The notes under the pieces: generated by a model
The model's database searches: none
Told to the model about the DNA's origin: nothing
Seen by the model: the letters and a program-made list of their open reading frames with translations, nothing else
Position numbers and translations under genes: made by a program
Origin: a virus
Taxonomy: Duplodnaviria > Caudoviricetes
IMG/VR virus record: IMGVR_UViG_3300044632_001473
Location: 1-59,911 of that record
Length of the DNA stretch: 59,911 bases
Strand: one strand, 5' to 3'
In this document: positions 2,280 to 36,897 of the stretch, in pieces
Position numbering within the stretch: the stretch's first letter is position 1
Layout: each line of letters begins with the position of its first letter

Positions 2280-5200
2280 TTAGAATGTACCACCATCTAT
2301 TGTATCAGTAAATACTAACCCTCCGTCGGATGATTTGTAACTTAAGAAACCTGAAGCTACAGTACTTCCTACCGTTGTTGAAACTTCACCAAATACGTTG
2401 TTCGCATTTTTGAAAGTAACATTAGATTTTGTACTACTTACTAAGTCACTACCATCAGTTGATACAGTTAATGTACCTGCAACTACTGTATTACCTGATA
2501 CTGATTCAACTGTGAACTTATCTGTATTGAATTGTAATGTTGTACCACTATATTTCAATAAACTATCACCGATTGTATTGTCGGAAGATGCAATTGGAAA
2601 TGTTCCACTTGTTAAACTTGTTTCACTTCCTAATGTACCAGCTGTTGTTCCAATTACTTTACTTGAATTGTTAGAACCATCAACTGTTAACCAATCATTA
2701 TTTACTGAGTCCCATAGTAAAGAACCTGATTGATCCGCTGAACCTGAATCATATCCACTGATACCTGCATATCTTTGGAATGGTGAATAAGCGTTTACTA
2801 AGATAATATTATCACCGATTTCAACTGTACTTGATTGAATATTAACGTTTGTTGATGAACCTAATACTTGTAAGTTTCCTGATACAAATAGATTACCACC
2901 TAACATTGTTGCTGAACCTGAACTTACTGTTAATGAACCTGTGATTGATGTGTTAGAATTAACTTGTAGACCCGCTGCTGTTACCGATGCAGTTACTGCA
3001 CCACTTGCAATCTTGTCTAATTGTAATCCTGTAACTCCACTTGCTGGAATGTTATATAAACCTGCACCATCACCTGTAAATGAACCTGAAATAGTTCCTG
3101 TTGATGTTATTCCACCTTCTACATTTAATACTGTTCCGTTATATGTTAAACCACTTTGACCTTCTACTAAACCTCCTGTTCCTGTTGCGGTTAATAAGTA
3201 TCCATCAACGTTGTTGTTAATTGTTGCTGCACCTGAAGTACCTGAAGAACCTGCGGTTCCACTCGTTCCAGATGAACCACTAGAACCTGATGTTCCTGAT
3301 GTACCCGCTGTACCTGAAGTACCTGATGAACCTGATGTTCCTGATGTTCCTGAAGAACCTGATGTTCCTGAAGAACCACTTGTACCAGAACTTCCTGATG
3401 TTCCGCTAGAACCTGAAGAACCTGATGTTCCTGATGTTCCGCTAGAACCTGAAGAGCCTGATGTTCCACTTGTACCCGCAGTTCCTGAAGAACCACTTGT
3501 ACCAGAACTTCCTGAAGTACCTGATGAACCTGAAGTACCACTAGAACCCGAAGAACCTGATGTTCCACTTGTACCGGCCGTTCCTGAAGAACCACTTGTA
3601 CCTGACGAACCACTTGTACCAGATGAACCATTAGAACCTGAAGTACCTGAAGTACCCGCCGTTCCTGAAGAACCACTTGTACCTGACGAACCACTAGTTC
3701 CTGAACTTCCTGAAGAACCACTAGTTCCAGATGAACCAGAAGACCCACTTGTACCTGAAGTACCTGCAGTTCCTGAAGAACCACTTGTACCAGAACTTCC
3801 TGATGTACCAGAAGAACCAGATGTACCTCCGGAACCTGATGTTCCTGAAGAACCATTACCACCGACAGTAGCAATTACTTTACCTGCTTGAGCAGATTCA
3901 AAGTAAACTGCTAAATTATTACTATCTTGAACTGTAATTCTTGTTGGTATGATTACATTATCGTTTACATCAAATACATTGATTGCTGGATATTTGTAAC
4001 CTAAATTATGATTGAATGACCATGTTGTTAATGCAGTAAACACTCCTGTTTTTGTTTCTCCTGAAACAATTACTGCGTTCATTGCGTGAGATGCGGTTAA
4101 AGCGTAGTTTGCATATGATGCGGTACCTGCGAATTGAGAACTTGAACCTGAAACATATGAGTTAAACGCTGACTCATCTAATTTACCTGTACCTACAGTA
4201 ACACCATTTAACATCAATGAACCTGTGATGTTAACTGAACCAGTGAATTGGTGAGTATCGTCTAATGTATCACCAAATCTAGTTGAACCTGATTGATATA
4301 ATATAGATGATGTTACATAATCAATATGTAATTCTTTTGCTGTTAATATACCATCAATATATGTGTCACCATTAACTCTTAATGCACCGTTTGTAATAGA
4401 TGCACTTACACTTCCACTAACTATTTTATTTAATTCAAGACCTGTAACTCCACTCGCAGGGATATTATATAAACCAGAACCATTTCCTTGGAAGTTAGAA
4501 CCTGTTGCAACAACCACAGAACCACTTACAGTTAAAATTGAACCGTCAAATTGTAAGTTAGATTCACCATTCACTAATCCATCAACTCCTGTAGCGGTTA
4601 ATAAGTAATTGTTTGTATTGTTGTCAATTGTCGCCGCTCCTGAAGTACCTGAAGAACCCGCAGTTCCTGATGTACCAGACGTACCAGATGTACCCGCAGT
4701 TCCTGATGAACCACTAGAACCTGATGTACCTGACGTACCAGAACTTCCTGAAGTTCCACTTGAACCACTAGTACCAGACGAACCACTTGTTCCTGAAGTT
4801 CCTGATGACCCACTTGAACCTGATGTACCTGCAGTTCCTGATGAACCCGAAGTTCCTGATGAACCACTTGTTCCACTAGAACCTGAAGAACCTGAAGTAC
4901 CACTAGTACCTGATGTACCAGAACTTCCTGATGTACCAGAACTTCCTGATGTACCAGAAGAACCACTAGACCCACTTGTACCAGACGAACCAGATGAACC
5001 TGATGTTCCTGATGTGCCAGAACTTCCTGAAGTACCACTTGAACCGCTTGTTCCTGAAGAACCAGATGTTCCAGATGAACCTGATGTTCCACTAGTTCCT
5101 GATGTACCGGCTGTTCCAGATGAACCACTACTACCCGAAGTACCTGAAGTACCTGCGGTTCCTGATGAACCAGATGAACCTGAAGTACCCGAAGATGCTG

Positions 5201-5666
5201 CTGTATATTCTGTTCCGTTTATAAATAAACTTCCTGTTACATTTATTGACCCACTTACATTTGCTTGATTTAATGTTGCAGTTGTACCACTTAAATTTGT
5301 AATGGTCATACCTGAAACGGTATTACCTTCTAAGTTACCTGTTAAATCCAATTTACTGTTACCAACATTATCATTATTTAAAATGTATAATGCTTGATCA
5401 TTACTTGAATAAAATGGTGTACCGTCTAAAACTGAACCGTAAGTTCCCGCTACAATTGTTGGTGCAGCAGCTCCTGAGTAAATTTTAGATACAGCATTAA
5501 ACGCACCTGCAACTCCTTCATTACCTATTACCGGTGAACCGATAAAGATAAAAGGACCTTGTAAGTCGTTAACCGAACCTGAAGCGATGATTAATTCACC
5601 ATTTCTTGCCGTTGTGTTTTTGAGGGTTGATATCGAACCCCTCCTGTGTTTGATAATTTGTGCCAT
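2280..5666 (-). CDS. Tail/head fibre protein with two SGT (G-x-x) repeat tracts
   Basis: 1128 aa. N-terminal IKHRRGS...NGEL resembles fibre attachment (Mtd_N-like) motifs; modules shared with 5744..10285; C-terminal IDGGTF. Confidence 0.75.
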   Translation of the reverse strand: MAQIIKHRRGSISTLKNTTARNGELIIASGSVNDLQGPFIFIGSPVIGNEGVAGAFNAVSKIYSGAAAPTIVAGTYGSVLDGTPFYSSNDQALYILNNDNVGNSKLDLTGNLEGNTVSGMTITNLSGTTATLNQANVSGSINVTGSLFINGTEYTAASSGTSGSSGSSGTAGTSGTSGSSGSSGTAGTSGTSGTSGSSGTSGSSGTSGSSGTSGSSGTSGTSGSSGSSGTSGSSGSSGTSGSSGTSGSSGTSGTSGTSGSSGSSGTSGSSGTSGSSGTAGTSGSSGSSGTSGTSGSSGTSGSSGTSGSSGTSGTSGSSGSSGTAGTSGTSGTSGTAGSSGTSGAATIDNNTNNYLLTATGVDGLVNGESNLQFDGSILTVSGSVVVATGSNFQGNGSGLYNIPASGVTGLELNKIVSGSVSASITNGALRVNGDTYIDGILTAKELHIDYVTSSILYQSGSTRFGDTLDDTHQFTGSVNITGSLMLNGVTVGTGKLDESAFNSYVSGSSSQFAGTASYANYALTASHAMNAVIVSGETKTGVFTALTTWSFNHNLGYKYPAINVFDVNDNVIIPTRITVQDSNNLAVYFESAQAGKVIATVGGNGSSGTSGSGGTSGSSGTSGSSGTSGSSGTAGTSGTSGSSGSSGTSGSSGSSGTSGSSGTSGSSGTAGTSGTSGSNGSSGTSGSSGTSGSSGTAGTSGTSGSSGSSGTSGSSGTSGSSGTSGSSGTAGTSGTSGSSGSSGTSGTSGSSGSSGTSGSSGTSGSSGTSGSSGTSGTSGSSGTSGTAGTSGTSGSSGSSGTSGTAGSSGTSGAATINNNVDGYLLTATGTGGLVEGQSGLTYNGTVLNVEGGITSTGTISGSFTGDGAGLYNIPASGVTGLQLDKIASGAVTASVTAAGLQVNSNTSITGSLTVSSGSATMLGGNLFVSGNLQVLGSSTNVNIQSSTVEIGDNIILVNAYSPFQRYAGISGYDSGSADQSGSLLWDSVNNDWLTVDGSNNSSKVIGTTAGTLGSETSLTSGTFPIASSDNTIGDSLLKYSGTTLQFNTDKFTVESVSGNTVVAGTLTVSTDGSDLVSSTKSNVTFKNANNVFGEVSTTVGSTVASGFLSYKSSDGGLVFTDTIDGGTF

Positions 5667-5743: not shown

Positions 5744-8700
5744 TTATTCAAAATTTCCTAAATCAATCACTGTATTATTACTTCCTGAAGTCGTTTCATT
5801 AAAAATGACCTTTTCACTATTGAATTTTAAGGATGCTGATAGTATTTGAGAGTTAATATATGCCTGAACAATATTCATAGTTCCTGATACAATTAATGAA
5901 TCCATTAACAAATCAGTTGAACGTAATGTGGTTGTACCATTAACTATCAAATCTCCATCAATTATAACCGAACCTGTTGTTTTTAATGATCCTGTAAATT
6001 GATGAGTATCGTCTAATGTATCTCCGAACTTTGTTGATCCTGACTCATACAATATAGAAGACGTTACATAATTGATATTTAACTCTCTTGCAGTAATTGT
6101 ACCGTCAATAACAACGTCAGTATTAACTTTTAAAATACCATCTTCCAAAGAAGCACTTACACTACCACTAACAATTCTATCTAATTGAAGCCCAGTAACT
6201 CCACTTGCCGGTACGTTGTAAAGACCCGCACCATCACCAACAAATGAACCACTTATAGTTCCGTTGTTAACAGTTAAGTCTCCTGTATTAATAACTAAAT
6301 CACTGTTTGTTAAGTCAACTGTTCCGTCAAACATGTAGAAATTGGAACCGCTTGTTAAGTAGAACGATGAGCTATCCGTCATAATGACGTTAGAGTCAAC
6401 AACACCTAACTGTGAAGTAATATCTAACGAACCAGTAATTTGAACGTTATTTGTTGTAGCCCATACACTTCCTGTTAAGGCGAATAGACTATCACCTGAA
6501 GAACCAGAACTACCAGATGTACCAGAAGAACCACTTGTACCCGAAGTACCTGAAGAACCACTTGTTCCAGACGAACCACTAGTTCCTGATGAACCCGATG
6601 TACCAGAGGTTCCTGAACTACCACTAGTTCCTGAAGAACCACTTGTTCCAGATGTACCAGAACTTCCTGATGTACCAGATGTACCAGATGTACCAGATGT
6701 ACCTGATGTACCGCTAGAACCTGAAGTACCAGAACTACCGCTAGTTCCTGAAGTACCACTAGTTCCACCAGAACCTGAAGTACCAGAAGAACCACTTGTA
6801 CCAGATGTGCCGGCACCACCTACAGTTGCAACTACTCTACCTGATTGAGGTGAATTAAAATAAACTTCTAAATTATCTTGGTCAACAACATGTATATCTG
6901 AAGGAATTACTACGTTATCATCCGCATCAAATACATTTATTACGGGATATTTCTCATGTAAATTATGGAAGAAAGACCATGTACTTTGATTGATAAATGA
7001 TTGTTGTACGTTTGCACCTGATACAATAATAGCATTTAAAGCATAAATTGCATATGATGCGGTACCTTCTAATGAACCTGTAATACCATCACTAACATTT
7101 AATGAACCCGTAATTTGAATGTCGTTTGTTGTTGACCAAAACGATCCCGTTTGTCCAAATAAACTATCTCCACTTGTACCGCTAGAACCTGATGTACCAG
7201 AACTACCAGATGTTCCACTAGAACCTGATGTACCACTCGTACCGGATGTTCCTGAACTACCCGATGTACCAGAAGTACCACTAGAACCTGACGTTCCACC
7301 CGTACCACTTGTACCTGATGTACCATCAACACCACTTATACCAGATGAACCACTTGTGCCGGATGTACCAGAACTACCAGATGTTCCACTTGTACCAGAA
7401 CTTCCCGATGTACCACTAGAACCAGAAGTTCCAGATGAACCTGAAGAACCGCTTGTACCAGAACTTCCTGAAGTTCCACTTGTACCAGACGAACCACTAG
7501 TACCTGATGTTGATGCATTATAAGATGTTCCGTTGATGATTAAATCTCCACCGCTAATTTCTAATCTTGAACCAGTGATATAAACAGAGCCAGTGAATTG
7601 GTGAGTATCGTCTTGTGTATCACCAAATTTTGTACTTCCACTTTGATATAAAATTGAAGAAGTTACATAATCAATATGTAATTCTTTAGCTGTAATTGTT
7701 CCATCAATGTATGTGTCACCATTTACTCTAAACGTTCCGTCTGATTGAATGGACGCACTTACACTACCACTAACTATTTTATTTAACTCTAATCCCGTTA
7801 CACCTGAAGCTGGTATGTTATATAAACCCGCACCATCTCCGAAGAAAGCTGCAGTAATAAATCCACCATTTTCAATAATGATATTACTACCACTTGTTAA
7901 TATTAATGATGAACTATCAGTTAAAAATAAACTTGAATCAAAAATACCCGCTCCACTTGATACTGTTAATGAACCTGTAATTGATGTGTTTGTATTAATT
8001 TGTAAACCATCTTCGTCAATAGATGCTGTGGCACTTCCACTAGCAATTTTATCTAATTGAAGTCCTGTAACCCCGCTTGCTGGAATATTATATAAACCAG
8101 CACCATCACCAAAGAAAGCTGCGGTAATGAAACCACCATTTTCAACATATATATTTGATCCACTTGTTAAAATAAGTGAACCACTATCAGTTAAAAGAAT
8201 ATTAGCATCACTTACACCCAATTGTGAAGAGACACTTAAAGAACCTGTAATTTGAATGTCGTTTGTTGTTGCCCAAAAAGAACCTGTCTGAGCAAATAAA
8301 CTATCACCACTAGTTCCTGATGAACCAGATGTACCTGAACTACCACTAGTTCCTGAAGAACCGCTTGTACCTGATGTACCAGAACTTCCTGAGGTTCCAC
8401 TAGAACCTGACGTTCCTGAAGTTCCACTAGAACCAGAGGTTCCTGAACTACCCGATGTTCCACTAGTACCTGATGTACCAGAACTTCCTGATGTACCGCT
8501 AGAACCTGATGTACCTGATGTTCCAGAACTACCTGAAGTGCCAGATGAACCACTCGTTCCACTACTACCAGAAGTACCACTAGTACCTGATGTACCACTT
8601 GAACCAGAGGTTCCTGAACTACCCGATGTTCCACTAGTACCTGATGTACCAGAACTTCCTGATGTACCACTTGTACCGGCAGTTCCCGAAGACCCACTTG

Positions 8701-10299: not shown

Positions 10300-12555
10300 T
10301 TAAGTTGTTATACCAAATGTTATTATTACGTTCGTACTTCCTCCCGTTGCCGCACCTGTGTTTGCTGACGATACGGAATATAAAACCATACCGGTCCAAT
10401 TACCACCCGAATATTGTTGAAAAACACTGTGTTGAGCAGTGCTAGTTGCATTTGGTGATTTAGATAAAACCTCCGTACCATTAACACCATGTGTCATTAT
10501 ATTCACTATAGGTTGTGATTGTAAACCACTTGGTCTACCAATTTGTAATCTATTTGTTGTTGGTATTGTAAATGACCACCCTAAAGCTTCAAGAGCTGAT
10601 TTATTTTCACCATTAGGACCTAAAACACTCGCAATTGGTGTAGTGGCATCGGTGGATCCTCCTGTCATATTCAATACCACCTGATATCCTTTTATTGTTG
10701 CATCAACATATAAAGGTGATGTACCAGAAGTTCCTGAAGTACCCGCACTACCGCTAATTCCTGAAGTACCTGATGTACCATTAATACCCGATGTACCTGA
10801 CGTACCGTTAATACCTGAAGTACCTGATGTTCCTGAGGAACCGTTAACACCTGATGTACCTGATGTACCATCAACTCCCGATATACCTGAAGTACCTGAA
10901 GAACCATTACTACCACTAGAACCTGAAGTTCCGGCACTACCACTTATACCAGATGTACCTGAAGATCCGTTACTTCCTGACGTACCTGATGTACCATTAA
11001 TACCTGATGTACCTGATGTACCATTAATACCTGATGTACCTGATGAACCTGAAGTACCCGATGTTCCATCAATACCAGATGTACCTGTAAGACCTGGTTC
11101 ACCTAAAACAATTAATAAAAATTCGTCATCACTTGATGGGTCATTACCTCCAACGGCAATTTGTGATACTGTGTAGTTCTCAAAACCAGACTCATATGGT
11201 GAAACTGATGTAATTTGTAATATTTTAAAAATTGATGGGTCAGTTGCCTTAATCAATTTTAATATTGTACCGTTAGTTAAACTATCTAAATAAGTTGAAA
11301 AATCAACATTTGGTGAAAAACTAAAATTTCCAAAAGATATACTTGTTGTTGATAAACCCCAAGAGGATGTGTTTAATTTAAAATATCCGTTATTTGGGTT
11401 AACATTTGTATTTGTATTTGTATTAAACTTCCAAATTGCTAAATGTCCTTGATAACCATCGTTACCTATTGTACCTCCACCTGTTATTTGAACTGTTATA
11501 TTTCCTCCACCATTATCAACTACAGTTGCACCACTAAATGTGATTCCTGAAATATTTGTAATTGGTGAACCACCTTGTTCTTTTACATAAATTGATGATG
11601 ATGTTCCTGAAGAACCACTTGAACCTGATGATCCGCTTGAACCTGAAGAACCGCTTGAACCTGAAGTTCCTGAAACTCCTCCCGTACCACCACTTAAGAT
11701 ATTAACTCTCACATCACCATTACCTAAATTAGTAATTGATGCACCCGAAAAAACTATTCTATCAACCGATGTAACAGTTGTTGAGTTGTCGGTTACAGTT
11801 AATGCAGTTCCACCACCTCCACTTGTTCCACTTACGCCTGAAGCATATAAATTAACTGTCCAATCATTATGAGCACTACCACCTGAAACTTCAGTAACTA
11901 AAAATCTTAATGAACCGTTTGTTGGATTATATGAAATTACACGACCAATTAAATAATCGTTTATATCATATGCAACAATAATCATCTGACCTAAAGAATA
12001 GGAAAGACGTAAATCAACTGTTATAGTAATTTCACTTCCGACAAATTCATCAATGTCATCAATGTATGTTGTTGAAGTTGTTAGATAAACCGCTCCTGAA
12101 GTACCTGACGTACCAGAAGAACCTCTAGCTCCCGATGTACCCGAAGTACCTGATGTACCAGTTAAACCACTTGATCCTGATGAACCACTTGATCCACTTG
12201 TTCCTGATGTACCGTTAACACCATCTAATCCATCACTACCTGAAGTACCCGATGAACCAGATGAACCGTTAGTACCATTAACACCTGATGTGCCCGATGT
12301 TCCTGAAGAACCTCTAGCACCAGATGTACCTGATGTACCGCTAGAACCTGTTGCACCGTTACTACCTGATGTTCCTGAAGAACCGCTTGAACCTGAGGTT
12401 CCACTACCATTACCTGTTATATTATTACCGTTTACAATTAAACTATCGGCATATATTGTGGATAATGGAGTTGACTCAGAACCAAGGTTGACTGTTGACC
12501 CTGATGGAACATATTCACTATTGATTTGGTCCCAATTAATCTGTTGTAATGCCAT
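10300..12555 (-). CDS. Fibre protein with SGT repeat tracts
   Basis: 751 aa; G-x-x Ser/Thr repeats separating beta-rich domains; TATTTAT upstream. Confidence 0.7.
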
Positions 12556-12603
12556 TTTATGTAAAGTCTTTTACATAAATACTTTTATTCTACTTATGAG
12601 CAT

Positions 12604-12633
12604 AAAAAAAGAGGTATTTACCTCTTTTTTTTT
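12604..12633 (-). terminator. Intrinsic terminator (bidirectional-type)
   Basis: aaaaaaagaggta-tt-tacctcttttttttt. Confidence 0.8.
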
Positions 12634-12906
12634 CTAAATGTGTTTTTTTATTATATTAATTGCTTCTTCGTCACTCATAAAATCAACTCCAGCAACATAT
12701 ACAGGACCCGTATCTAAGTTTTCTTTTTTAATATAAACCGTAGGTAATGAGTTATGTCCAGTCTGATTTACTACCTCGTTCCAAATTTTTTGGTTATTTG
12801 TAATTTCAATTTCAGTATATGGTATTGATTCAATTCTCAATCTTTTTTTTAAAGATTTACAATGAATACAATCATTTAAAGTAAATAAAATTATAATATT
12901 AGACAT
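12634..12906 (-). CDS. Glutaredoxin/NrdH-like redoxin
   Basis: CIHC active-site motif; TGHNSLPTVYI cis-Pro loop. Confidence 0.85.
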   Translation of the reverse strand: MSNIIILFTLNDCIHCKSLKKRLRIESIPYTEIEITNNQKIWNEVVNQTGHNSLPTVYIKKENLDTGPVYVAGVDFMSDEEAINIIKKHI

Positions 12907-12910
12907 AATT

Positions 12911-13216
12911 CTACAAAGTATCTAAAATATTAGTGTATACACTATCAATATTAGCACCAACTGAACGGTTTACTAATGTAGTTCCGTTATAAATCATTAC
13001 GGTTGGAACTGTAGTAATGTTTAATTCTCTTGCAGAATCCATATTTTCTTCAATATCCAATTTAACAAAGGTAATATCTGAGTATTTGTTTGACAAATTT
13101 GATAACCTTGGTGTTAGTGCCTTACATGGACCACACCATGTTGCTGTATATTGAACTAATACTTTATTTCCTTGTGATAACAATTGTGATAATTGTGTTG
13201 CGTTTACGTTTTGCAT
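12911..13216 (-). CDS. trxA: Thioredoxin
   Basis: WCGPC motif; ITTVPT cis-Pro loop; 101 aa. Confidence 0.93.
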   Translation of the reverse strand: MQNVNATQLSQLLSQGNKVLVQYTATWCGPCKALTPRLSNLSNKYSDITFVKLDIEENMDSARELNITTVPTVMIYNGTTLVNRSVGANIDSVYTNILDTL

Positions 13217-13225
13217 TTTTTAATT

Positions 13226-14299
13226 TTAAAATCCTATTTTATTTCCTTTTGAGGATGTTTTATAGACTTCAGTGTCTATGTTATAAATATCAGCTAAGAC
13301 CATACCTTCCTCAACTGTGTGATTTTTTTTCAAAGATTTCAAAAGTTTGTTGGTATCGTCAACTGAAAGTCTCTCAAATTTATGTTCGGCGATTAAACGA
13401 CCTTTACGAAGTAAGGCTTGGTCAATTTTTTCTCTCTTCATATTGAAAGTTGCAATCACTTGAATATTCAAACAATCTCCCAAAATACCATCCGTTAAGT
13501 TAAGGATATTAGACACTCCTGCAGGTGAACCATTACCTTCTCTATCTGAAATAACCCTTTCCGCATCCTCAATAATTAGAATTGAGTTCTTATGGTCCAT
13601 TAAAAACGGAATGATTGTTGGTTCAGATAACATCTCAGCCATTGACGGTGGTATGAAAAGTATGTCTTTATCTTTAATTAAACTTGTGAGATATTTGATG
13701 TAAGATGTCTTTCCCGTGCCAGGGTCACCGTGAAGTAAAATAATCCCTTTGTCGTTTGTCTTGTTTAACCTATCAATAATAACCTTATGTATTTTTTTAA
13801 AGTCCTTACCATAGTTTAATTCTAAATCAATTGGTGGTACCATTAAATCATAGTCTTCGGTATCCAAATGACCCATTTCACTTTTTACCAATTGGATACT
13901 TGCCTTTTTCTTTTTTGTTTGAAATTTTTTCAAAGAATCCAAATCAAGTTGATTACCAATTTCTCCATTTTCAATAGAATAAGCAAAATCTAAATTAAGA
14001 TTACCTATTGTTAATTTGTCAACAGATGTATTTGTTTTAACAATTATTTTTTTATCCTTATGTACAAACATAGATTGTGAAAAAGAATCATAACTTCTAT
14101 TATTTGTTAATATTCTCAATTCTTCCACAAAACCCATCTTCATTAATTCGGTAATAACCAAAGGGTTATAAAGAATTTTACTATTACTAAATTTTGACGG
14201 TAATTTATCAAATAAAATTACATAGTACTGTTCCGTTGGTATTTCATTGCCGTAAACCGTATCGTATAGTGGGTAATTAACCGAAAACTTTTTTTCCAT
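13226..14299 (-). CDS. AAA+ ATPase
   Basis: Walker A GDPGTGKT; Walker B ILIIED; SRH-like IDQALLRKGRL. Confidence 0.9.
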   Translation of the reverse strand: MEKKFSVNYPLYDTVYGNEIPTEQYYVILFDKLPSKFSNSKILYNPLVITELMKMGFVEELRILTNNRSYDSFSQSMFVHKDKKIIVKTNTSVDKLTIGNLNLDFAYSIENGEIGNQLDLDSLKKFQTKKKKASIQLVKSEMGHLDTEDYDLMVPPIDLELNYGKDFKKIHKVIIDRLNKTNDKGIILLHGDPGTGKTSYIKYLTSLIKDKDILFIPPSMAEMLSEPTIIPFLMDHKNSILIIEDAERVISDREGNGSPAGVSNILNLTDGILGDCLNIQVIATFNMKREKIDQALLRKGRLIAEHKFERLSVDDTNKLLKSLKKNHTVEEGMVLADIYNIDTEVYKTSSKGNKIGF

Positions 14300-16124: not shown

Positions 16125-16277
16125 ATGGGATGTACAAAATGTAAAGAAAAAAGGGATATTAAGGAGGAAATGATAAAGTCGGGAGAATTCATAAATAAGG
16201 GAATCATTTGGTTTGCTATCGGATGGTCTTTACTTGGAATTTACGGTTTAATCACACTAATATCAAAAATATTATGA
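16125..16277 (+). CDS. Small membrane protein (MGCTKC..., 50 aa)
   Basis: ATG at 16125; C-terminal TM helix; ATGA overlap with the next gene. Confidence 0.65.
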   Translation: MGCTKCKEKRDIKEEMIKSGEFINKGIIWFAIGWSLLGIYGLITLISKIL

Positions 16278-16915
16278 GTAATAAAAAATATTCAATAGTT
16301 CTCTTTTGTAATAAAAAGAGAGTTAGTGTTTTATACAGTTGTATGAAAAGAACAACCGTATATGAATATTGGAGGGAATTTAAAACTCAACTTAGACCAA
16401 GGTATATAAAACAACAAACTGGTACAAGAAAAAATAAGGATTTATTATATGAATTAGCTCTCATATTTCCTAACAATAGATGGGCAACCGCAACATGGGT
16501 GAAGGATAGTTTAGGTAGAAATCAAGAAGCAAAAATAGAAAACGATAAATTAAGAATAAAAGAAATTATACCCTATTGGAAAGAGGAATTAATTTATGAT
16601 TTTAATTTGAAAAAAAGAATTAGGTATCATCAAATGTTAGAATACATTCTTTCAATCTCAGAAATTACACAAATTTTCATATTAAATAAAAATCTATTTG
16701 TACAAATTGAAAATGATGTGAGACTTTTTGGTAATAAAAATAAAGAGGACGCTGAGAGATTACTTGAATTAGTTAGAGAAGATTTAATAAATAAAAAAAG
16801 GGGTAATTTCTTTTTTGTAAAAGACATTAACACCCATCAAAGAAAACTTCTATATAAACTACTTGAATCTAAAGGATTTAATCGTAGAGAATTATTTAGA
16901 CACTACTCGTATTAA
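16274..16915 (+). CDS. Hypothetical basic protein
   Basis: Start MSNKKY at the ATGA overlap; ~213 aa. Confidence 0.7.
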   Translation: MSNKKYSIVLFCNKKRVSVLYSCMKRTTVYEYWREFKTQLRPRYIKQQTGTRKNKDLLYELALIFPNNRWATATWVKDSLGRNQEAKIENDKLRIKEIIPYWKEELIYDFNLKKRIRYHQMLEYILSISEITQIFILNKNLFVQIENDVRLFGNKNKEDAERLLELVREDLINKKRGNFFFVKDINTHQRKLLYKLLESKGFNRRELFRHYSY

Positions 16916-23851: not shown

Positions 23852-24661
23852 CTATAAATAGTTTAAGAGACCAAAACTTTCATTTCTTAGTTTCTTAATT
23901 GCCTTATCACGTAATTGTCTGATACGTTCTTTTGTACATCCAAATTCTTCACCTAAGTCTTCTAAATTAGATTCAACACCCGTAAGACCATAATATCTTT
24001 CTATAATAATCTTTTCTCTATCGTCTAAAACACTTAACATTTGATTAACTTTTTTCTTAACTTCTTCAGGAGAATTTAAAATTGCATCAGGACTTTCCGC
24101 TTCTCTATTTGGTATAATATCAATTAATTGGTCTCCCTCTTCATTAATTTCTTTATATAAACCTATACAATATGGTAAGTTACTATGTACCGGTTGATCG
24201 TTATTATAAACAAAAAAATTATCTTCTTCGTTAATTTCGTCTTTTTTATATTTTTGAGCTTCAGTTACTAAATTTGATGGGAGTCTAATTGTTCTTGCAT
24301 TATCATTTAATGATGCCATTATTGATTGTCTAACCCACCATACTGCATATGATATAAATTTTAATCCACTTGTTGGGTCAAACCTTTCTGCTGCTTTAAT
24401 TAAACCGATATTACCTTCAGATATCAAATCCATTACATCCAATCCTTGATTTTGATACGTTTTTGCAACTGATATTACAAATCTTAAATTACCCTTCACT
24501 AATTCATCATATAAATCTTTCCTATGTTCTTTTGTGATTCTTTTATCATTTAATTGACTGAAGATTTCTTCTTGTCTGATGTGTGAAATAACAGGTATCT
24601 TCTTAATATCTCTGATATACTGTTGAATTTCCTCTGGATTGGTGATGGTGGATTTCTTCAT
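23852..24661 (-). CDS. RNA polymerase sigma-70 family factor (RpoD/RpoS-like)
   Basis: Region 2 NLRFVISVAKTY...DLISEGNIGLIKAAERFD...FISYAVWWVRQSI; region 4 TKERIRQL. Confidence 0.95.
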   Translation of the reverse strand: MKKSTITNPEEIQQYIRDIKKIPVISHIRQEEIFSQLNDKRITKEHRKDLYDELVKGNLRFVISVAKTYQNQGLDVMDLISEGNIGLIKAAERFDPTSGLKFISYAVWWVRQSIMASLNDNARTIRLPSNLVTEAQKYKKDEINEEDNFFVYNNDQPVHSNLPYCIGLYKEINEEGDQLIDIIPNREAESPDAILNSPEEVKKKVNQMLSVLDDREKIIIERYYGLTGVESNLEDLGEEFGCTKERIRQLRDKAIKKLRNESFGLLNYL

Positions 24662-32772: not shown

Positions 32773-33626
32773 CTTGAAATGTATTTTGATAAATCCATAG
32801 TAAGGATTGCGTTATTAATTTGTGGGGGAACTTTATATTCAACAAATGTTGCGTCATCTTTTAATAAAACAACAACATTACCTAATAATTTAATATCTTG
32901 GTATTTTGTTCCTTCTAACATTTTACGTAACAATCTTCCATATAATGGTAATTGTAAATAGTAATGACCTAGTGCATTATCGTGATAATTGTTGAATGGT
33001 GGATATAGTTTACCAGTATAATGATGTACCTCAAAATTCTTAGGTTGGTTTGTTTTCCAATCTGTAATAACAAATCCAAATCCATCTTTCTCTTTGTTTT
33101 GCATCAACCATACTTTATCAGGTTGTCCTGTGTATTGTTCAGTTGGGTCACCTAATACAATCTCCGTATCTAATAATATCCCGCCTCTTTCTAACATTAA
33201 ATCAAGAAATTGTTTGCCGGCACTAATCATATTATCACTCTTACGTTGTTGTTCTTCATTGATAGTGAATATAGGTTGTCTAACTTCTTTGTAGTTATCA
33301 AAACGACCAATCAATTCAGATTCCAATTCAAAGTGAACACGACTACCCATATTTGTTGATAGGTCACCAGCTTGTCTCCATTCAGCAAGTAATTGAGCTT
33401 GACCTTCAGGGTCACCTTTGGACATCTTTAGTGCCATACCTTCAGCATCAAATGGTTTATGAAATTTCTTAACGATTTTAGATACTGATGGAAAGTTCTT
33501 TTTTATTTCACCATCAACATCTTTCATATAGTAAATGTGTTCTTCTTCTATAAATGTTAATTCTAATTCTTTTCTTCTTTTTTCTAATAAATCATTAATT
33601 TCTAACGATACGTCTTTTAAATTCAT
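32757..33626 (-). CDS. PD-(D/E)xK exonuclease
   Basis: PSVS, GSRVH, E...GQPD...DWKT, YYLQLPLY. Confidence 0.85.
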   Translation of the reverse strand: MNLKDVSLEINDLLEKRRKELELTFIEEEHIYYMKDVDGEIKKNFPSVSKIVKKFHKPFDAEGMALKMSKGDPEGQAQLLAEWRQAGDLSTNMGSRVHFELESELIGRFDNYKEVRQPIFTINEEQQRKSDNMISAGKQFLDLMLERGGILLDTEIVLGDPTEQYTGQPDKVWLMQNKEKDGFGFVITDWKTNQPKNFEVHHYTGKLYPPFNNYHDNALGHYYLQLPLYGRLLRKMLEGTKYQDIKLLGNVVVLLKDDATFVEYKVPPQINNAILTMDLSKYISRWSRK

Positions 33627-33628
33627 TT

Positions 33629-34573
33629 TTATTCTATTTGTTTCATTTTATATTCATTTAAGTTTCCCTGTAAATCGGCAATATCTTTATCTCCCTCCAA
33701 TTTAATACTCCACACCTTACCCATCAACTTACCACAATTTAATTTATGATATAATTTTTCTTGATCGCCATATGCGTCAGGGTCTAATACTATAATTATT
33801 TTTTTTGCCTTTTCATAAAGTGTCATAAATAAATGTTCACTCATAAATTTTCCTAACATTGGTATTGCGTTTGGTATAAAAATACTATCAAATGCACCTT
33901 CAACGATATAGACGGGTTTAGTCCAATCAATTAAATATTCATTGAATATTATAAGTTCCTTTTGTGCTTCAGGATTTTTATATTTAAATTTTGTTTTCAT
34001 TAAATAAGACCTAGCAATAAAATAATTTAATCTATTATTTTCATCATATGAAGGAATTATTATTCTATTCTCATATAATCCTGTTGCACAAAAACCAATG
34101 TTATATATTTGTAACATCAAATCAGTGATGTTTCTATTTTTAATATAATTGTACGCCTGTTTATATCCAGGTGTCAATTTCATTCCAAATGAGGCATCTT
34201 TAAATGAAACAAATTCTTTAGGTAATTTAACTGGTTTATACGTTCTTTTTGATATATCTTCATCATCTTCAGGTTTCAATAAAAGATATTTCTTTAATTG
34301 CCTTGGATTACCAAATTTCTTAATTAATTTAAATACTGAACCGTGTGTTCCATGTGTTTCAGCACATACCCAACATTTATAAACACCATATTTGTAATTG
34401 ACTTCAAGATTTCCTTTCCCATCACCGTGGTCTAACCCTTTTATCTCATGTGAACATATTGGGCAATCAAAAGATACTTGGTGTCTATAGTCATTGTGAT
34501 TCTTATAGTCACCAAACATATCCTCTAAAATCTCAAATACCGCGGAATAGTCAACTTCTTCTTGGGTGCTCAT
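33629..34573 (-). CDS. DNA primase (Zn-binding domain plus TOPRIM)
   Basis: CPIC...CWVC, RIIIP, KYKNP, IVEGAFD, LDPD, KD motifs. Confidence 0.9.
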   Translation of the reverse strand: MSTQEEVDYSAVFEILEDMFGDYKNHNDYRHQVSFDCPICSHEIKGLDHGDGKGNLEVNYKYGVYKCWVCAETHGTHGSVFKLIKKFGNPRQLKKYLLLKPEDDEDISKRTYKPVKLPKEFVSFKDASFGMKLTPGYKQAYNYIKNRNITDLMLQIYNIGFCATGLYENRIIIPSYDENNRLNYFIARSYLMKTKFKYKNPEAQKELIIFNEYLIDWTKPVYIVEGAFDSIFIPNAIPMLGKFMSEHLFMTLYEKAKKIIIVLDPDAYGDQEKLYHKLNCGKLMGKVWSIKLEGDKDIADLQGNLNEYKMKQIE

Positions 34574-34616
34574 TTAGATAAAATACAAAAAATAAACGAT
34601 AATAAAAAATAGTGAG

Positions 34617-34688
34617 CAAAAAATTGGGGCGAGAACACCACCTCTCGCCCCTCCAACCAAACCTGTATTTCTACAGGTCCCGTCCTAT
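34617..34688 (-). ncRNA. Candidate small structured RNA (~72 nt, two hairpins ending in a terminator-like stem and U-tract)
   Basis: GC-rich intergenic island: GGACCUGUA-GAAA-UACAGGUUU, linker, GGGGCGAGA-GGUGGUGU-UCUCGCCCC-AAUUUUUU; own TATTTAT at 34691-34697; no ORF. Confidence 0.55.
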
Positions 34689-34719
34689 TAATAAATATAG
34701 GTAAGTTATTTTCAAAAGT

Positions 34720-34742
34720 AAAATATTAGTTGCCCAATATTT
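34720..34742 (-). terminator. Probable terminator of the UDP-GDH-like gene
   Basis: AAUAUUGG-GCAA-CUAAUAUU followed by U-rich sequence. Confidence 0.45.
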
Positions 34743-35566
34743 TATACTACCGCCCTACCTTTCATATTTTCCCAATCCCTATTAACTCTTACAGTGTTAT
34801 TAGTGTCATTTGTGGATTTTAAAACATTATTTAAGGTACCTAATTGATTTGATAATGATATTAACGCAGATAAATCTTTTGGAAAACAATGACCTCCAAA
34901 ACCATAATCACCATCATGACCAGGTACTGACCAATGTGAATGACCTAATCTTTCATCGTGAATTGCGTATTCAACTACTTTATCGTAGTCAATATTCAGT
35001 TTTTCACATAGTTGGTATATCTCATTTGCAAAAGATACTTTAACCGATAAGAAAGTATTAATAAGGTACTTTACCATTTCAGCATGTGTTGAATCTGTTT
35101 TAATGATTTCCGCCTTAGGAAAAACCTTACTGAATACTTGTTTTAGTTTAGTTGTCGCAGTCCTCGGTCCTCCTAATATTATTCTATTTTGATTTTCGTA
35201 ATCATCAATTGCATTACGTTCCGTTAAAAATTCAGGATTAAAAGCAATCGTAATATTCTCATATTTTGAGTTTAATCCATCTGTGGTACCAGGCGTTATT
35301 GTTGATTTAATAACAACAATTTTATTTTTTGAGGTGTCGTTAATTTTTTTAATTACTCCTTCAACAATATCAATATTACAACTACCGTCTTGATTCATCG
35401 GTGTTGGTAGACATACAAATATAACTTCTGATTTTTCAATTAAATCAGTTTCAGATGAATTACTTTTAGTTTCATCTAAATCGTATGTTAAAACATTATA
35501 ATAATTTTTAAACTTTTGGTATATTGCGTTACCAACAAATCCTTGTCCTATTATTCCAATAATCAT
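34742..35566 (-). CDS. UDP-glucose/GDP-mannose dehydrogenase family protein (short form, no C-terminal domain)
   Basis: GxGxxG, CLPTP, KST, NPEFL, EMVKY..N, GFGGHCFPKD (catalytic Cys). Confidence 0.9.
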   Translation of the reverse strand: MIIGIIGQGFVGNAIYQKFKNYYNVLTYDLDETKSNSSETDLIEKSEVIFVCLPTPMNQDGSCNIDIVEGVIKKINDTSKNKIVVIKSTITPGTTDGLNSKYENITIAFNPEFLTERNAIDDYENQNRIILGGPRTATTKLKQVFSKVFPKAEIIKTDSTHAEMVKYLINTFLSVKVSFANEIYQLCEKLNIDYDKVVEYAIHDERLGHSHWSVPGHDGDYGFGGHCFPKDLSALISLSNQLGTLNNVLKSTNDTNNTVRVNRDWENMKGRAVV

Positions 35567-35567
35567 T

Positions 35568-36179
35568 TTATGCAGTTTGTTTGTTCATGTTTACATATCC
35601 GATAACACAACATGCAGCATCTGCCATATCGTAGTTCTCTTTTTTAAGGTTACCTGTTTTTCCATATAACCAATTAACATCGGGACATACACTATTAACG
35701 TGTTCCCAAATAACATGTTTCTTATCAATATCTTTTGGGTACCCACCGAATAAAACATTACGTCCTTTATCATTTGGACCAACCAAATCGGGAAATGCAA
35801 ATTTTCTTGAGTTGTACGTTGAGATAAACGTTGGTAACACTCCTAATACATCGTAACAATTCTTTAAAATTAAAGTGTTATAACGTAATAACGTTCCGAT
35901 AGTGTAAATGTTATTTGATTGTAATAAAGGTTCCTCAATGACGACACGGAGAATTCCCATGTCTTTATAACCCTCTAAATGTTTTTTAAACGCATCCGCT
36001 TTTTTAATCAACTCTTCAATCTTATCTACAGGTTGAGGTTTTATTTTAGGGGAAAAATGAGTTAGTTCTAATAATTTAGAACCTGATATATCAAATAAGG
36101 CAAATCCAATAACTTTAGTACTGATATCAAGACCTAAAATTTTAGGTGTATTTTTTAATTTAATTAACTTGTCATTCAT
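35568..36179 (-). CDS. RuvC-like Holliday junction resolvase
   Basis: ILGLDIST...VVIEE...YDMADA (RNase H-fold acidic residues). Confidence 0.8.
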   Translation of the reverse strand: MNDKLIKLKNTPKILGLDISTKVIGFALFDISGSKLLELTHFSPKIKPQPVDKIEELIKKADAFKKHLEGYKDMGILRVVIEEPLLQSNNIYTIGTLLRYNTLILKNCYDVLGVLPTFISTYNSRKFAFPDLVGPNDKGRNVLFGGYPKDIDKKHVIWEHVNSVCPDVNWLYGKTGNLKKENYDMADAACCVIGYVNMNKQTA

Positions 36180-36897
36180 AATATTTCCATTTATATCCGG
36201 CCGCTGTTTTTATTTTACCTAAACAACATTCACCAATGTGATTATTTTTATACTCTTTTTTTGCTTCCGAAATTGATTCCCATATTTTTATTTTTTTACC
36301 ATCCAAGGTTAACTGTATGATTTTTCTTTTTTGATGTGAATGGGAATTTGATATTTTTTTACCATACTCTTCGTCATATTTTCTTCCTTTATTTGGTGAA
36401 ACTCTACCCTTCGTAGATAAAGATAGATTTTTTCTGTGTAAAAGTGAACGCTCTTTTCCATTATTTAAATGTGGAATTGGTTTACCTTTTTTTGCCAATG
36501 AAATATTTTTTTTTGTTTCCTCAGATCTTTTTTTTCCCTTATTATTTTCTGAAATTCTTTTTAATTGTTCGGGTGTCCATTTTCTTCCTAACGCACTTGG
36601 TGGATTTTCTCCTCCTTCTGATATATTTGTTAATTTACAACCAATAGATTTATAATATGAAATATAATGTTTTTCCCAAAATTCCCAATTACATTCATCA
36701 ACTTCATCTATTATTAATAATTCTGGTTTGTTATTATTTTCTAGTAAAGAAAATATCCATTTATCTTTATAACTTATTTTTTTATTACTGTCCTGTAAAT
36801 GTTTTCTATAACGAGATTGTGGATTAATACTTTTACCAATATATTTTAATTCATTTTTTGATTTATCAACTAAACCATATATATATACTTTTCTCAT
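36172..36897 (-). mobile_element. Free-standing GIY-YIG homing endonuclease with NUMOD3 and NUMOD1 domains
   Basis: YIYGL...YIGKS...R...E...N; KRSEETKKNIS repeats; C-terminal WESISEAK...KTAAGYKWKY. Confidence 0.88.

Follow-up and report, generated by a model that had tools for sequence, protein, structure and literature searches.

A predicted single-copy structured small RNA upstream of the primase gene in a clade of freshwater jumbo phages

What is encoded in the 168-nucleotide (nt) gap that separates a UDP-glucose dehydrogenase-like open reading frame (ORF) from a DnaG-type primase gene in the virus record IMGVR_UViG_3300044632_001473? We analyzed a window of 59,911 nt, an 18%-complete fragment of this virus record, with a G+C content of ~30% and almost every gene on the same strand. 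All coordinates given here are positions within this window, and the RNA element and its neighbors lie on the minus strand, with the dehydrogenase-like ORF at 34742-35566 and the primase at 33629-34573. An earlier note, made from the sequence alone, had proposed that the gap holds a stand-alone RNA of two GC-rich hairpins, and the minus-strand sequence that it quoted for 34617-34697 matches the window exactly. Our analysis indicates that this RNA, which is probably a new phage small RNA, represents a new single-copy structured RNA family of a jumbo-phage clade, with what read in the sequence as its own promoter and its own terminator.

The predicted RNA is ~70 nt long (34617-34686, minus strand; 5′ AGGACGGGAC ... 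CCCCAAUUUUUU 3′), as delineated by its fold, covariation, and a covariance model, with the ends placed from the position of the promoter-like box and from the U-run. The minimum-free-energy fold of 91 nt contains both of the adjoining hairpins that the earlier note had described and reaches −37.0 kcal/mol, compared to −21.0 ± 3.1 kcal/mol for dinucleotide-shuffled sequences (z = −5.23; 0 of 200 shuffles as stable). In hairpin 1 (34655-34684, minus strand), the lower stem, GAC-G-GGAC with GUUU-R-GUU, is almost unvarying and includes three G·U pairs and a purine-purine mismatch, and the upper stem covaries and carries an A-rich loop (GAAA in the window copy). A short unpaired linker follows (34652-34654), which the alignments give as GGA in the window and mostly as GGUA or GGUG elsewhere; the 3′ strand of hairpin 1 and this linker join into a conserved GUUURGUUGGU. 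Hairpin 2 (34626-34651) has a freely covarying stem of 9-10 bp, and its loop (34635-34642; GGUGGUGU) includes a nearly invariant UGGUG (loop consensus KUGGUGU, 7-8 nt). The tail (34618-34625) reads AA followed by six U's in the window and mostly A followed by nine U's in the relatives. In the main clade, two similar single-stranded motifs, GUUGGU and GUGGUG, are spaced 14-17 nt apart.

The terminator scan scored hairpin 2 (10 pairs, including 7 G-C) with its tail AATTTTTT as terminator-like, and the surrounding 2.5-kb region holds 3 terminator-like sites compared to 0.8 expected. Judged by these sequence features, the hairpin and the U-run behind it form a canonical intrinsic (Rho-independent) terminator. 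The absence of an ORF or tRNA fold, as proposed before, is borne out: no minus-strand ORF of at least 40 amino acids lies in 34574-34741, and ARAGORN returned no transfer RNA (tRNA) or transfer-messenger RNA (tmRNA) gene in the whole window. The same program detected four tRNAs and a tmRNA in a near-complete relative, G001, and so works on this clade.

Is this structure maintained by selection? Using the primase as an anchor, we searched IMG/VR and obtained 105 related stretches, of which the best 80, with 61-86% primase identity, were kept. The loop motif occurs within 260 nt upstream of the primase in all 80 of these loci. The first alignment (A1) combined the window with the 48 distinct 120-nt segments from these loci, giving 49 rows. 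On this alignment, RNAalifold predicted 17 pairs, 11 of them with compensatory changes, and extended hairpin 1 downwards into the lower stem described above; the loop sequence TGGTG was invariant in 49 of 49 distinct primase-derived rows. The second alignment (A2) came from a collection by degenerate patterns (105 stretches), which yielded 52 distinct copies aligned with MAFFT, and here a 19-pair structure was tested. We found that 98.5% of the 986 pair cells are paired, compared to 72.0 ± 1.0% upon shuffling (0 of 500 shuffles reach the observed value) and to 35-61% in controls with slid partners. Changes on both sides occur in 13 of the 19 pairs (223 cells), including all nine pairs of helix 2. 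In helix 1, where all cells of the 10 pairs are paired, the four upper pairs covary and the six lower pairs, three of them G·U, are nearly invariant. Specifically, these lower-stem G·U pairs stay G·U in 50, 52, and 51 of the 52 copies. For the third alignment (A3), we used A2 to build a covariance model, with which 68 hits (67 distinct; divergent members included) were aligned, and here 98.9% of the cells are paired compared to 68.5% upon shuffling. Since A3 is fitted to the model, it leans towards the structure, a bias of which the MAFFT alignment A2 is free.

Two properties of the sampling weigh against an unreserved reading of these numbers. First, the collecting patterns demanded GTTGG and GTGGTG, so that the invariance of these motifs in A2 is partly forced and the primase-derived set gives the unbiased figure. 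Second, all members belong to one phage clade, and their kinship inflates the statistics against shuffles; a clear separation is still obtained with the slid-partner control, in which relatedness is kept. Altogether, we have very little doubt that a structured RNA is under selection here. The region between the upstream gene and the primase in relatives, which the earlier note had suggested collecting, retains the two hairpins and their linker, and compensatory changes there are abundant.

The alignments also identify the strand. G·U pairs account for 218 of the 986 paired cells in A2 (22%), and the mean folding energy is −30.4 kcal/mol for the sense strand and −18.2 kcal/mol for the antisense strand, with the sense strand folding better in 52 of 52 copies. 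Since wobble pairs are tolerated and the sense strand folds better in every copy, selection acts on the gene-sense strand as RNA, and the functional strand is the gene-sense RNA. This agrees with the minus orientation that the earlier note had favored.

The covariation also bears on a simpler explanation, that the element is only the terminator of the upstream operon next to a fortuitously stable hairpin. Hairpin 2 with its U-run is indeed a textbook intrinsic terminator, and the GAAA-capped top of hairpin 1 is like many GAAA-capped terminator stems of these phages. Against this, hairpin 1 and the linker are retained, with covariation, down to ~58-61% identity of the neighboring primase or sigma protein, six columns of the promoter-like box are invariant, and the hairpin 2 loop is nearly so. 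This loop is also unique among terminator-like hairpins: a GTGGTG loop was found in only 1 of 69 such hairpins of G001, which is the present RNA, and GAAA tetraloops dominate the others. Had relatives lost hairpin 1 or the linker, the element would, by the refuting outcome named in advance, have been reduced to a terminator; both are conserved. Because of the covariation, a merely decorated terminator is unlikely, and we regard the terminator-only explanation as very improbable indeed.

How widely does the RNA occur, and is it tied to its neighbors? It is a single-copy element in a clade of freshwater jumbo phages with genomes of ~300-335 kb and a gene for ribosomal protein bS21. In the window, the covariance model gives one hit of 81.1 bits, with the next best at 11.1 bits, and the near-complete relatives G001 (335,630 bp) and G002 (323,865 bp) contain one hit each; several of the primase relatives lie on contigs of 300-335 kb. 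Among the 105 pattern-derived loci, 101 matched a stricter regular expression. Within 200 nt downstream of the RNA, a primase start is found in 98 of these 101, the other three being too short, and the upstream gene is RuvC-like in 97, the dehydrogenase gene (ugd) in one, and beyond the end of the sequence in three that are too short. The four loci dropped by the regular expression comprise two full members (L115 and L142; 81-85 bits), one that is not a member (L159; 13.5 bits), and one without a hit (L120). When the sigma-factor gene located 10 kb downstream was used as a second anchor, the RNA was found in 40 of 80 loci, the rest mostly having short flanks.

The module keeps its position between the RuvC-like gene and the primase and is nevertheless separable from either neighbor. 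In the window and three relatives (L035, L073, and L577), ugd is inserted between the RuvC-like gene and the module. In another relative, L357, a class-III aminotransferase gene (PF00202, E = 3e-69; 12218-13441) stands between the module and the primase, which follows 1.3 kb further on with its own box retained. Since genes have been inserted on either side, the RNA is separable from the primase. The RuvC-primase gap appears to be a hotspot for the insertion of auxiliary genes. The ugd-like ORF, identified by domain and PHROG matches and by comparison of loci, occupies this spot only in these few genomes and is missing from most relatives; it is short (274 amino acids), and its Pfam matches cover the central domain and a portion of the N-terminal one but no C-terminal domain.

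The divergent members show which part of the RNA is most constrained. As the model score declines from 70 to 33 bits, the sequence of hairpin 1 and the GUUGGU linker drift, and other pairs take over in the lower stem. What persists is the U-run and the KUGGUGU loop of 7-8 nt; L489 and L493, which diverge most, no longer have the linker motif. Since the loop stays while hairpin 1 and the linker drift, the hairpin 2 loop is, as read from these sequences, the oldest and most constrained element.

Beyond this clade, the searches gave no further members. A search of GenBank phage DNA produced no match. The nearest isolate primases belong to Flavobacterium and Maribacter phages, at ~34% identity, and the regions upstream of the primase in Flavobacterium phage immuto and uncultured phage LR756508 gave no model hit better than E = 0.64. 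A non-exhaustive search of cellular genome contigs with a loose pattern returned at least 120 stretches, and none among the matches listed passes the model at E ≤ 0.01. Two looser patterns applied to viral sequences added real members, among the matches listed, only at the same syntenic place. One look-alike (L396, 1061-1138) was not counted as a member, given its score of 25.6 bits (E = 7e-4 after pattern pre-selection) and its unrelated context. It has a G·U-rich hairpin, a GUUGGU linker, and a GUGGUG-loop hairpin with six U's (−28.9 kcal/mol, z = −4.4); having been found by a pattern that demands these motifs, the resemblance is probably due to chance.

Is the RNA transcribed on its own? 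The earlier note had pointed to a TATTTAT promoter motif in front of it. This motif, at 34691-34697, is the core of a promoter-like box, TATATTTAT (34691-34699, minus strand), that ends 4 nt 5′ of the conserved AGGACGGG and is supported by column invariance and enrichment. Six columns of the box are invariant across the 49 distinct sequences of the primase-derived set and the window, and in relatives the gap from the box to AG(G)ACGG measures 3-7 nt. A count over the window gives 23 copies of TATTTAT on the coding strand, compared to 9 on the opposite strand. Intergenic sequence, which makes up 5.5% of the window, holds 13 of the 23 coding-strand copies. An ORF start follows within 60 nt in 13 of the 23, and seven of these copies stand 5-9 nt from the ATG (for example, at gene starts 50742, 39100, 36897, and 19718). 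The motif is thus recurrent before genes, which supports its earlier reading as a promoter motif. Since TATTTAT stands 5-9 nt before the ATG of seven genes, transcription presumably starts a few nt after the box, in agreement with the 3-7 nt spacing at the RNA. This arrangement suggests that many mRNAs of this phage are leaderless or near-leaderless and start a few nt past the box. Shine-Dalgarno sequences are absent from the window genes, and this absence, together with the nearest isolate primases, is consistent with a Bacteroidota host range. Two minus-strand TATTTAT boxes, at 16793 and 16197, have no ORF start within 60 nt.

A putative −35-like element, TTTTAC(T), lies at 34717-34723 (minus strand), 17-18 nt 5′ of the TATATT hexamer (TTTACT-17-TATATT, 9 of 12 matches; the spacing in relatives was judged by eye). 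The combination of the box and this element resembles the Bacteroidetes −33/−7 promoter (TTTG ... TAnnTTTG). A GGCAACT box (34728-34734, minus strand), located ~40 nt 5′ of where the RNA starts, is conserved in sequence with no conserved pairing and occurs as GGCAANT in 72 of the 80 primase-derived loci; it may be a regulator-binding site. In the window copy, GGCAACT sits at the top of an A/U-rich hairpin with an 11-bp stem and a GCAA loop (−8.5 kcal/mol). The earlier note's terminator-like hairpin upstream of the RNA therefore exists in the window copy, but it is not called by the terminator scan and its structure is not conserved. In 30 distinct relatives, the mean is −1.4 kcal/mol, with many at 0, and we rejected it as a conserved terminator.

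The same class of box is found before other genes of the clade. G001 and G002 both encode bS21 (G001 122185-122331 and G002 83969-84118, on stretches L580 and L579, respectively), and in both genomes tandem TATATTT boxes stand in front of the gene, with 5 nt between the proximal copy and the ATG. A tmRNA (ARAGORN tag ATSTVAVA) and four tRNAs (Glu, Ser, Met, and Thr) map in G001 to 6275-6679 and 10452-11590 of stretch L195, corresponding to ~86.3-91.6 kb of this genome, and the tmRNA gene is preceded by a TATATTTG box. The feature that marks an independent small-RNA gene, a promoter-like box directly 5′ of the RNA, is therefore present at the sequence level.

We note that a promoter, a structured RNA, a terminator, and a gene start 45-55 nt downstream are also the arrangement of a cis-acting leader. 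In such a scheme, the box would drive the transcript of the primase (or the next gene), hairpin 2 would mostly terminate it, and a factor acting at hairpin 1 or the loop would set the level of read-through and keep the primase low. The conserved order of promoter, structured RNA, terminator, and ATG, with the primase within 200 nt in 98 of the 101 loci, fits this scheme, and a terminator reportedly lies upstream of dnaG in the E. coli rpsU-dnaG-rpoD operon. However, we found no conserved antiterminator: in transcripts truncated ahead of the 3′ arm of hairpin 2, the 5′ arm of this hairpin pairs upstream over at least 4 nt in 28 of 67 sequences and over 0 nt in 30 of 67, the mean cost of blocking hairpin 2 is 17 kcal/mol, and this arm covaries freely while the upstream strand is fixed. 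In addition, conservation is highest in the terminator loop, a part that would be dispensable for an expression platform. The primase also has its own leader, as the earlier note had recognized, with a promoter-like box, TATTTTAT (34578-34585, minus strand), located 4 nt before its ATG in the window and a TATATT-type box 4-9 nt before the ATG in relatives. Finally, the RNA of L357 precedes an aminotransferase gene, with the primase 1.3 kb away behind its own box. We therefore consider a cis-acting leader or attenuator unlikely.

A second alternative is that the element serves replication, either as a primer or R-loop origin transcript or as a single-stranded DNA hairpin recognized by the primase, with the hairpins and the T-rich tract marking the start. 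The locus belongs to a replication module of RuvC-like, primase, exonuclease, and SbcCD-like genes, and a conserved T9-ATCA-T6 tract follows the RNA; the T4 and ColE1 origins also use a promoter-driven transcript. This explanation is at odds with the pairing, since the 22% of G·U pairs, including the three invariant ones in hairpin 1, would be weak G·T pairs in DNA and C·A mismatches on the opposite strand. Moreover, L357 parts the element from the primase, the strong terminator would free the RNA instead of leaving it hybridized, and neither the window nor G001 has a GC-skew turning point at the site, a weak test given that skew tracks gene direction. A role in replication is thus quite improbable, and the primase-recognized hairpin origin, which the earlier note had offered as its alternative, is disfavored by the G·U content and by L357.

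We are therefore inclined towards a trans-acting small RNA expressed from a self-contained, single-copy gene with a putative promoter and terminator of its own, a reading to which we give somewhat better than even chances. The same moderate confidence applies to its being an independent transcription unit that would act in trans. In this proposal, the box TATATTTAT and the −35-like TTTTAC would drive a transcript of ~70 nt starting at or near AGGACGGG. The intrinsic terminator would end it efficiently, releasing a stable ~70-nt species with a paired 5′ end. Expression of the RNA would probably coincide with that of the genes sharing this box, among them the gene for bS21, which the main text of Chen et al. 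2022 (PMC9723584) reports to be expressed with structural genes. The RNA would then act in trans through its exposed UGGUGU loop, aided in the main clade by the GUUGGU linker, on a partner that would be either an RNA site containing ACCA/CACCA or a protein, with hairpin 1 as a specific handle or a stabilizer. The earlier description of an independently transcribed late noncoding RNA accordingly has support from the box, the terminator, the modularity, and the covariation, but its "late" timing depends solely on the box shared with the bS21 gene and can only be suggested. One metatranscriptome run (share of words 0.10), compared with 33600-35600, gave four contigs covering the primase and ugd and none over 34600-34700; contigs cannot show transcript ends, and this result has no bearing either way.

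What could the RNA act on? Base-pairing through the loop is a tentative suggestion for its mode of action, with a probability well below one half. The most specific candidate target is the leader of a phage sigma-70-family factor (23852-24661, minus strand; Sigma70_r2 E = 2.6e-18, Sigma70_r4 E = 2.7e-12). This leader is unusually C/A-rich (ACCAACCA, ACACCAC, and similar) in the window and many relatives, is complementary to the linker or the loop of the RNA in many genomes, and ranks 1-5 of ~25 local leaders for complementarity in most loci. Counting against it, composition-matched shuffled seeds match the sigma leader about equally (median p = 0.21, 27 distinct pairs), which leaves it as a weak lead among possible targets. 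Exact complements of the loop, the linker, and the 5′ strand in G001 occur in chance-like numbers with no evident pattern.

We also examined and set aside several other partners. The 5′ GACGGG complements CCCGUC, a universally conserved stretch of 16S ribosomal RNA (rRNA), and in E. coli-type 16S rRNA the bases beside CCCGUC would presumably also match the RNA loop. A two-part 16S rRNA target was rejected, given that Flavobacteriales, the predicted host group, read AAGCCA after CCCGUC in 24 of 24 places (from 18 of 41 genomes searched). Shine-Dalgarno mimicry was likewise dismissed: GGAGGUG occurs in some copies only, and the conserved GUGGUG would leave a U·U mismatch against the anti-Shine-Dalgarno sequence. 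The RuvC-like gene that adjoins the RNA module in most relatives (35568-36179) encodes a protein of 203 amino acids that we considered and rejected as an RNA-guided nuclease or RNA-binding partner, since its best match is a PHROG resolvase (E = 2.6e-6) and its Pfam (RuvX, E = 0.07) and PDB (E ≥ 0.058) matches are insignificant. Directly upstream of it is a GIY-YIG/NUMOD3 homing-endonuclease-like gene (36172-36897, minus strand), preceded by a TATATTTAT box.

A more specific and doubtful version of the base-pairing idea is that the RNA is a riboregulator of jumbo phages infecting Bacteroidota, which do without Shine-Dalgarno pairing and are not known to use Hfq. CA-rich sites (ACCA/CACCA) would be recognized by pairing with the UGGUGU loop and the GUUGGU linker of the RNA. 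These sites would be the CA-rich leaders found on a minority of phage genes, above all the sigma factor at 23852-24661, or alternatively the 3′-terminal (C)ACCA of tRNA or tmRNA, a sequence that T-box and RNase P RNAs also read. The UGGN of the T-box bulge and the GGU loop of RNase P are like the exposed UGGU(G) of the lake-phage RNA in complementing the (C)ACCA 3′ end of tRNAs or tmRNA; unlike them, the lake-phage RNA has 70 nt, no specifier, and no Rfam hit, and we treat the likeness as a lead only. If the riboregulator idea is true, the late program marked by the bS21 box would be coupled to translation of the sigma factor or to the state of the tRNA/tmRNA pool.

The constraint on the lower stem raises the possibility that the partner is instead a protein, and that the RNA is a sponge, cofactor, or decoy in which the G·U-rich lower stem, the purine-purine mismatch, and the UGGU motifs are protein recognition sites. 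The lower-stem G·U pairs almost never change to G-C or A-U in the 52 copies while the upper stem varies, which suggests recognition of wobble geometry; the main clade has its two single-stranded motifs at the 14-17 nt spacing noted above, and no pairing target stands out. However, no candidate protein was identified, the similarities of the RuvC-like neighbor to RNA-binding proteins are insignificant (E = 0.06 or worse), and the linker motif is lost in L489 and L493. We judge protein binding as the main role to be rather unlikely.

Does the RNA belong to a family that is already described? Rfam 15 gave no match at the gathering score in the whole window, in line with the earlier note's statement that it could not assign the RNA to a known family. 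Within 34400-34900, four chance-level matches appeared at E ≤ 10, the best with 18 bits compared to a gathering score of 40. This best match, RF02459 (Virus_CITE_4, a necrovirus cap-independent translation element), covers the same 78 nt with two hairpins and an aligned GGUGGUG-like loop. This identity was rejected as a chance resemblance, given the sub-threshold score (E = 0.63), the lack of a match to the model's outer helix, and the origin of the family in plant RNA viruses. Full-text literature searches found no paper describing such an RNA. The main text of PMC9723584 contains no mention of tmRNA, sigma, noncoding, or promoter and no regulatory RNA, and in the accessible text of the preprint 10.64898/2026.04.22.720137, the terms ncRNA, small RNA, bS21, and tmRNA all have zero occurrences.

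Several known phage and bacterial elements are similar in layout. DicF, lambda OOP, and P22 sar, which are trans-acting small RNAs of phages and prophages that end in an intrinsic terminator, share a length of 50-80 nt, an own promoter, a 5′ hairpin ahead of a U-tailed terminator hairpin, and short unpaired stretches that are conserved. In contrast to these, the lake-phage RNA has no Rfam family and no antisense partner gene at its locus, and its conserved element lies inside the terminator loop; its predicted hosts are Bacteroidota, which are not known to have Hfq. The HK022 put RNA, a cis-acting antiterminator, also has ~70 nt and two adjacent stem-loops just past a promoter, with conserved structure and few conserved unpaired bases. 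By description it is set apart in that the second stem of the lake-phage RNA is followed by a long U-run and should terminate rather than protect the polymerase. Leader terminators and attenuators, such as that before E. coli dnaG, share a terminator located just upstream of a DnaG-type primase gene, whereas the lake-phage RNA has a promoter-like box in front, no conserved alternative pairing, and a primase that has its own box and from which it is separable.

The phages that carry the RNA give these results a wider setting. In the main text of Chen et al. 2022 (PMC9723584), bS21-encoding freshwater phages are described with genomes of 293-331 kb, 31-34% G+C, and predicted Bacteroidetes hosts. 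The size, G+C content, habitat, and bS21 of the present clade are consistent with those phages. These are abundant, uncultivated ~300-kb viruses of freshwater Bacteroidota, already noted for bS21 in that text. A single-copy RNA under strong selection for its structure, with a near-invariant loop and a promoter-like box of the bS21/tmRNA class offers a concrete handle on gene regulation in the clade. In addition, it bears on how small RNAs act in hosts that lack Shine-Dalgarno-based initiation, and its covariance model provides a marker for the clade.

Some features of the rest of the window are recorded for completeness. The downstream primase (phrog_47, E = 1.6e-39) also has a weak DNAG_N match. 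A protein of 1,128 amino acids (2280-5666, minus strand) matches collagen triple-helix repeats in six stretches (E = 1.2e-52) and is probably a fibre or structural protein. The gap that holds the RNA had been called the largest intergenic one, which is roughly right: the larger gaps between ORFs of at least 100 amino acids contain ORFs of 59-90 amino acids or a plus-strand ORF. The sole sizeable plus-strand ORF that occupies space free of minus-strand genes lies at 16208-16915 and encodes 235 amino acids.

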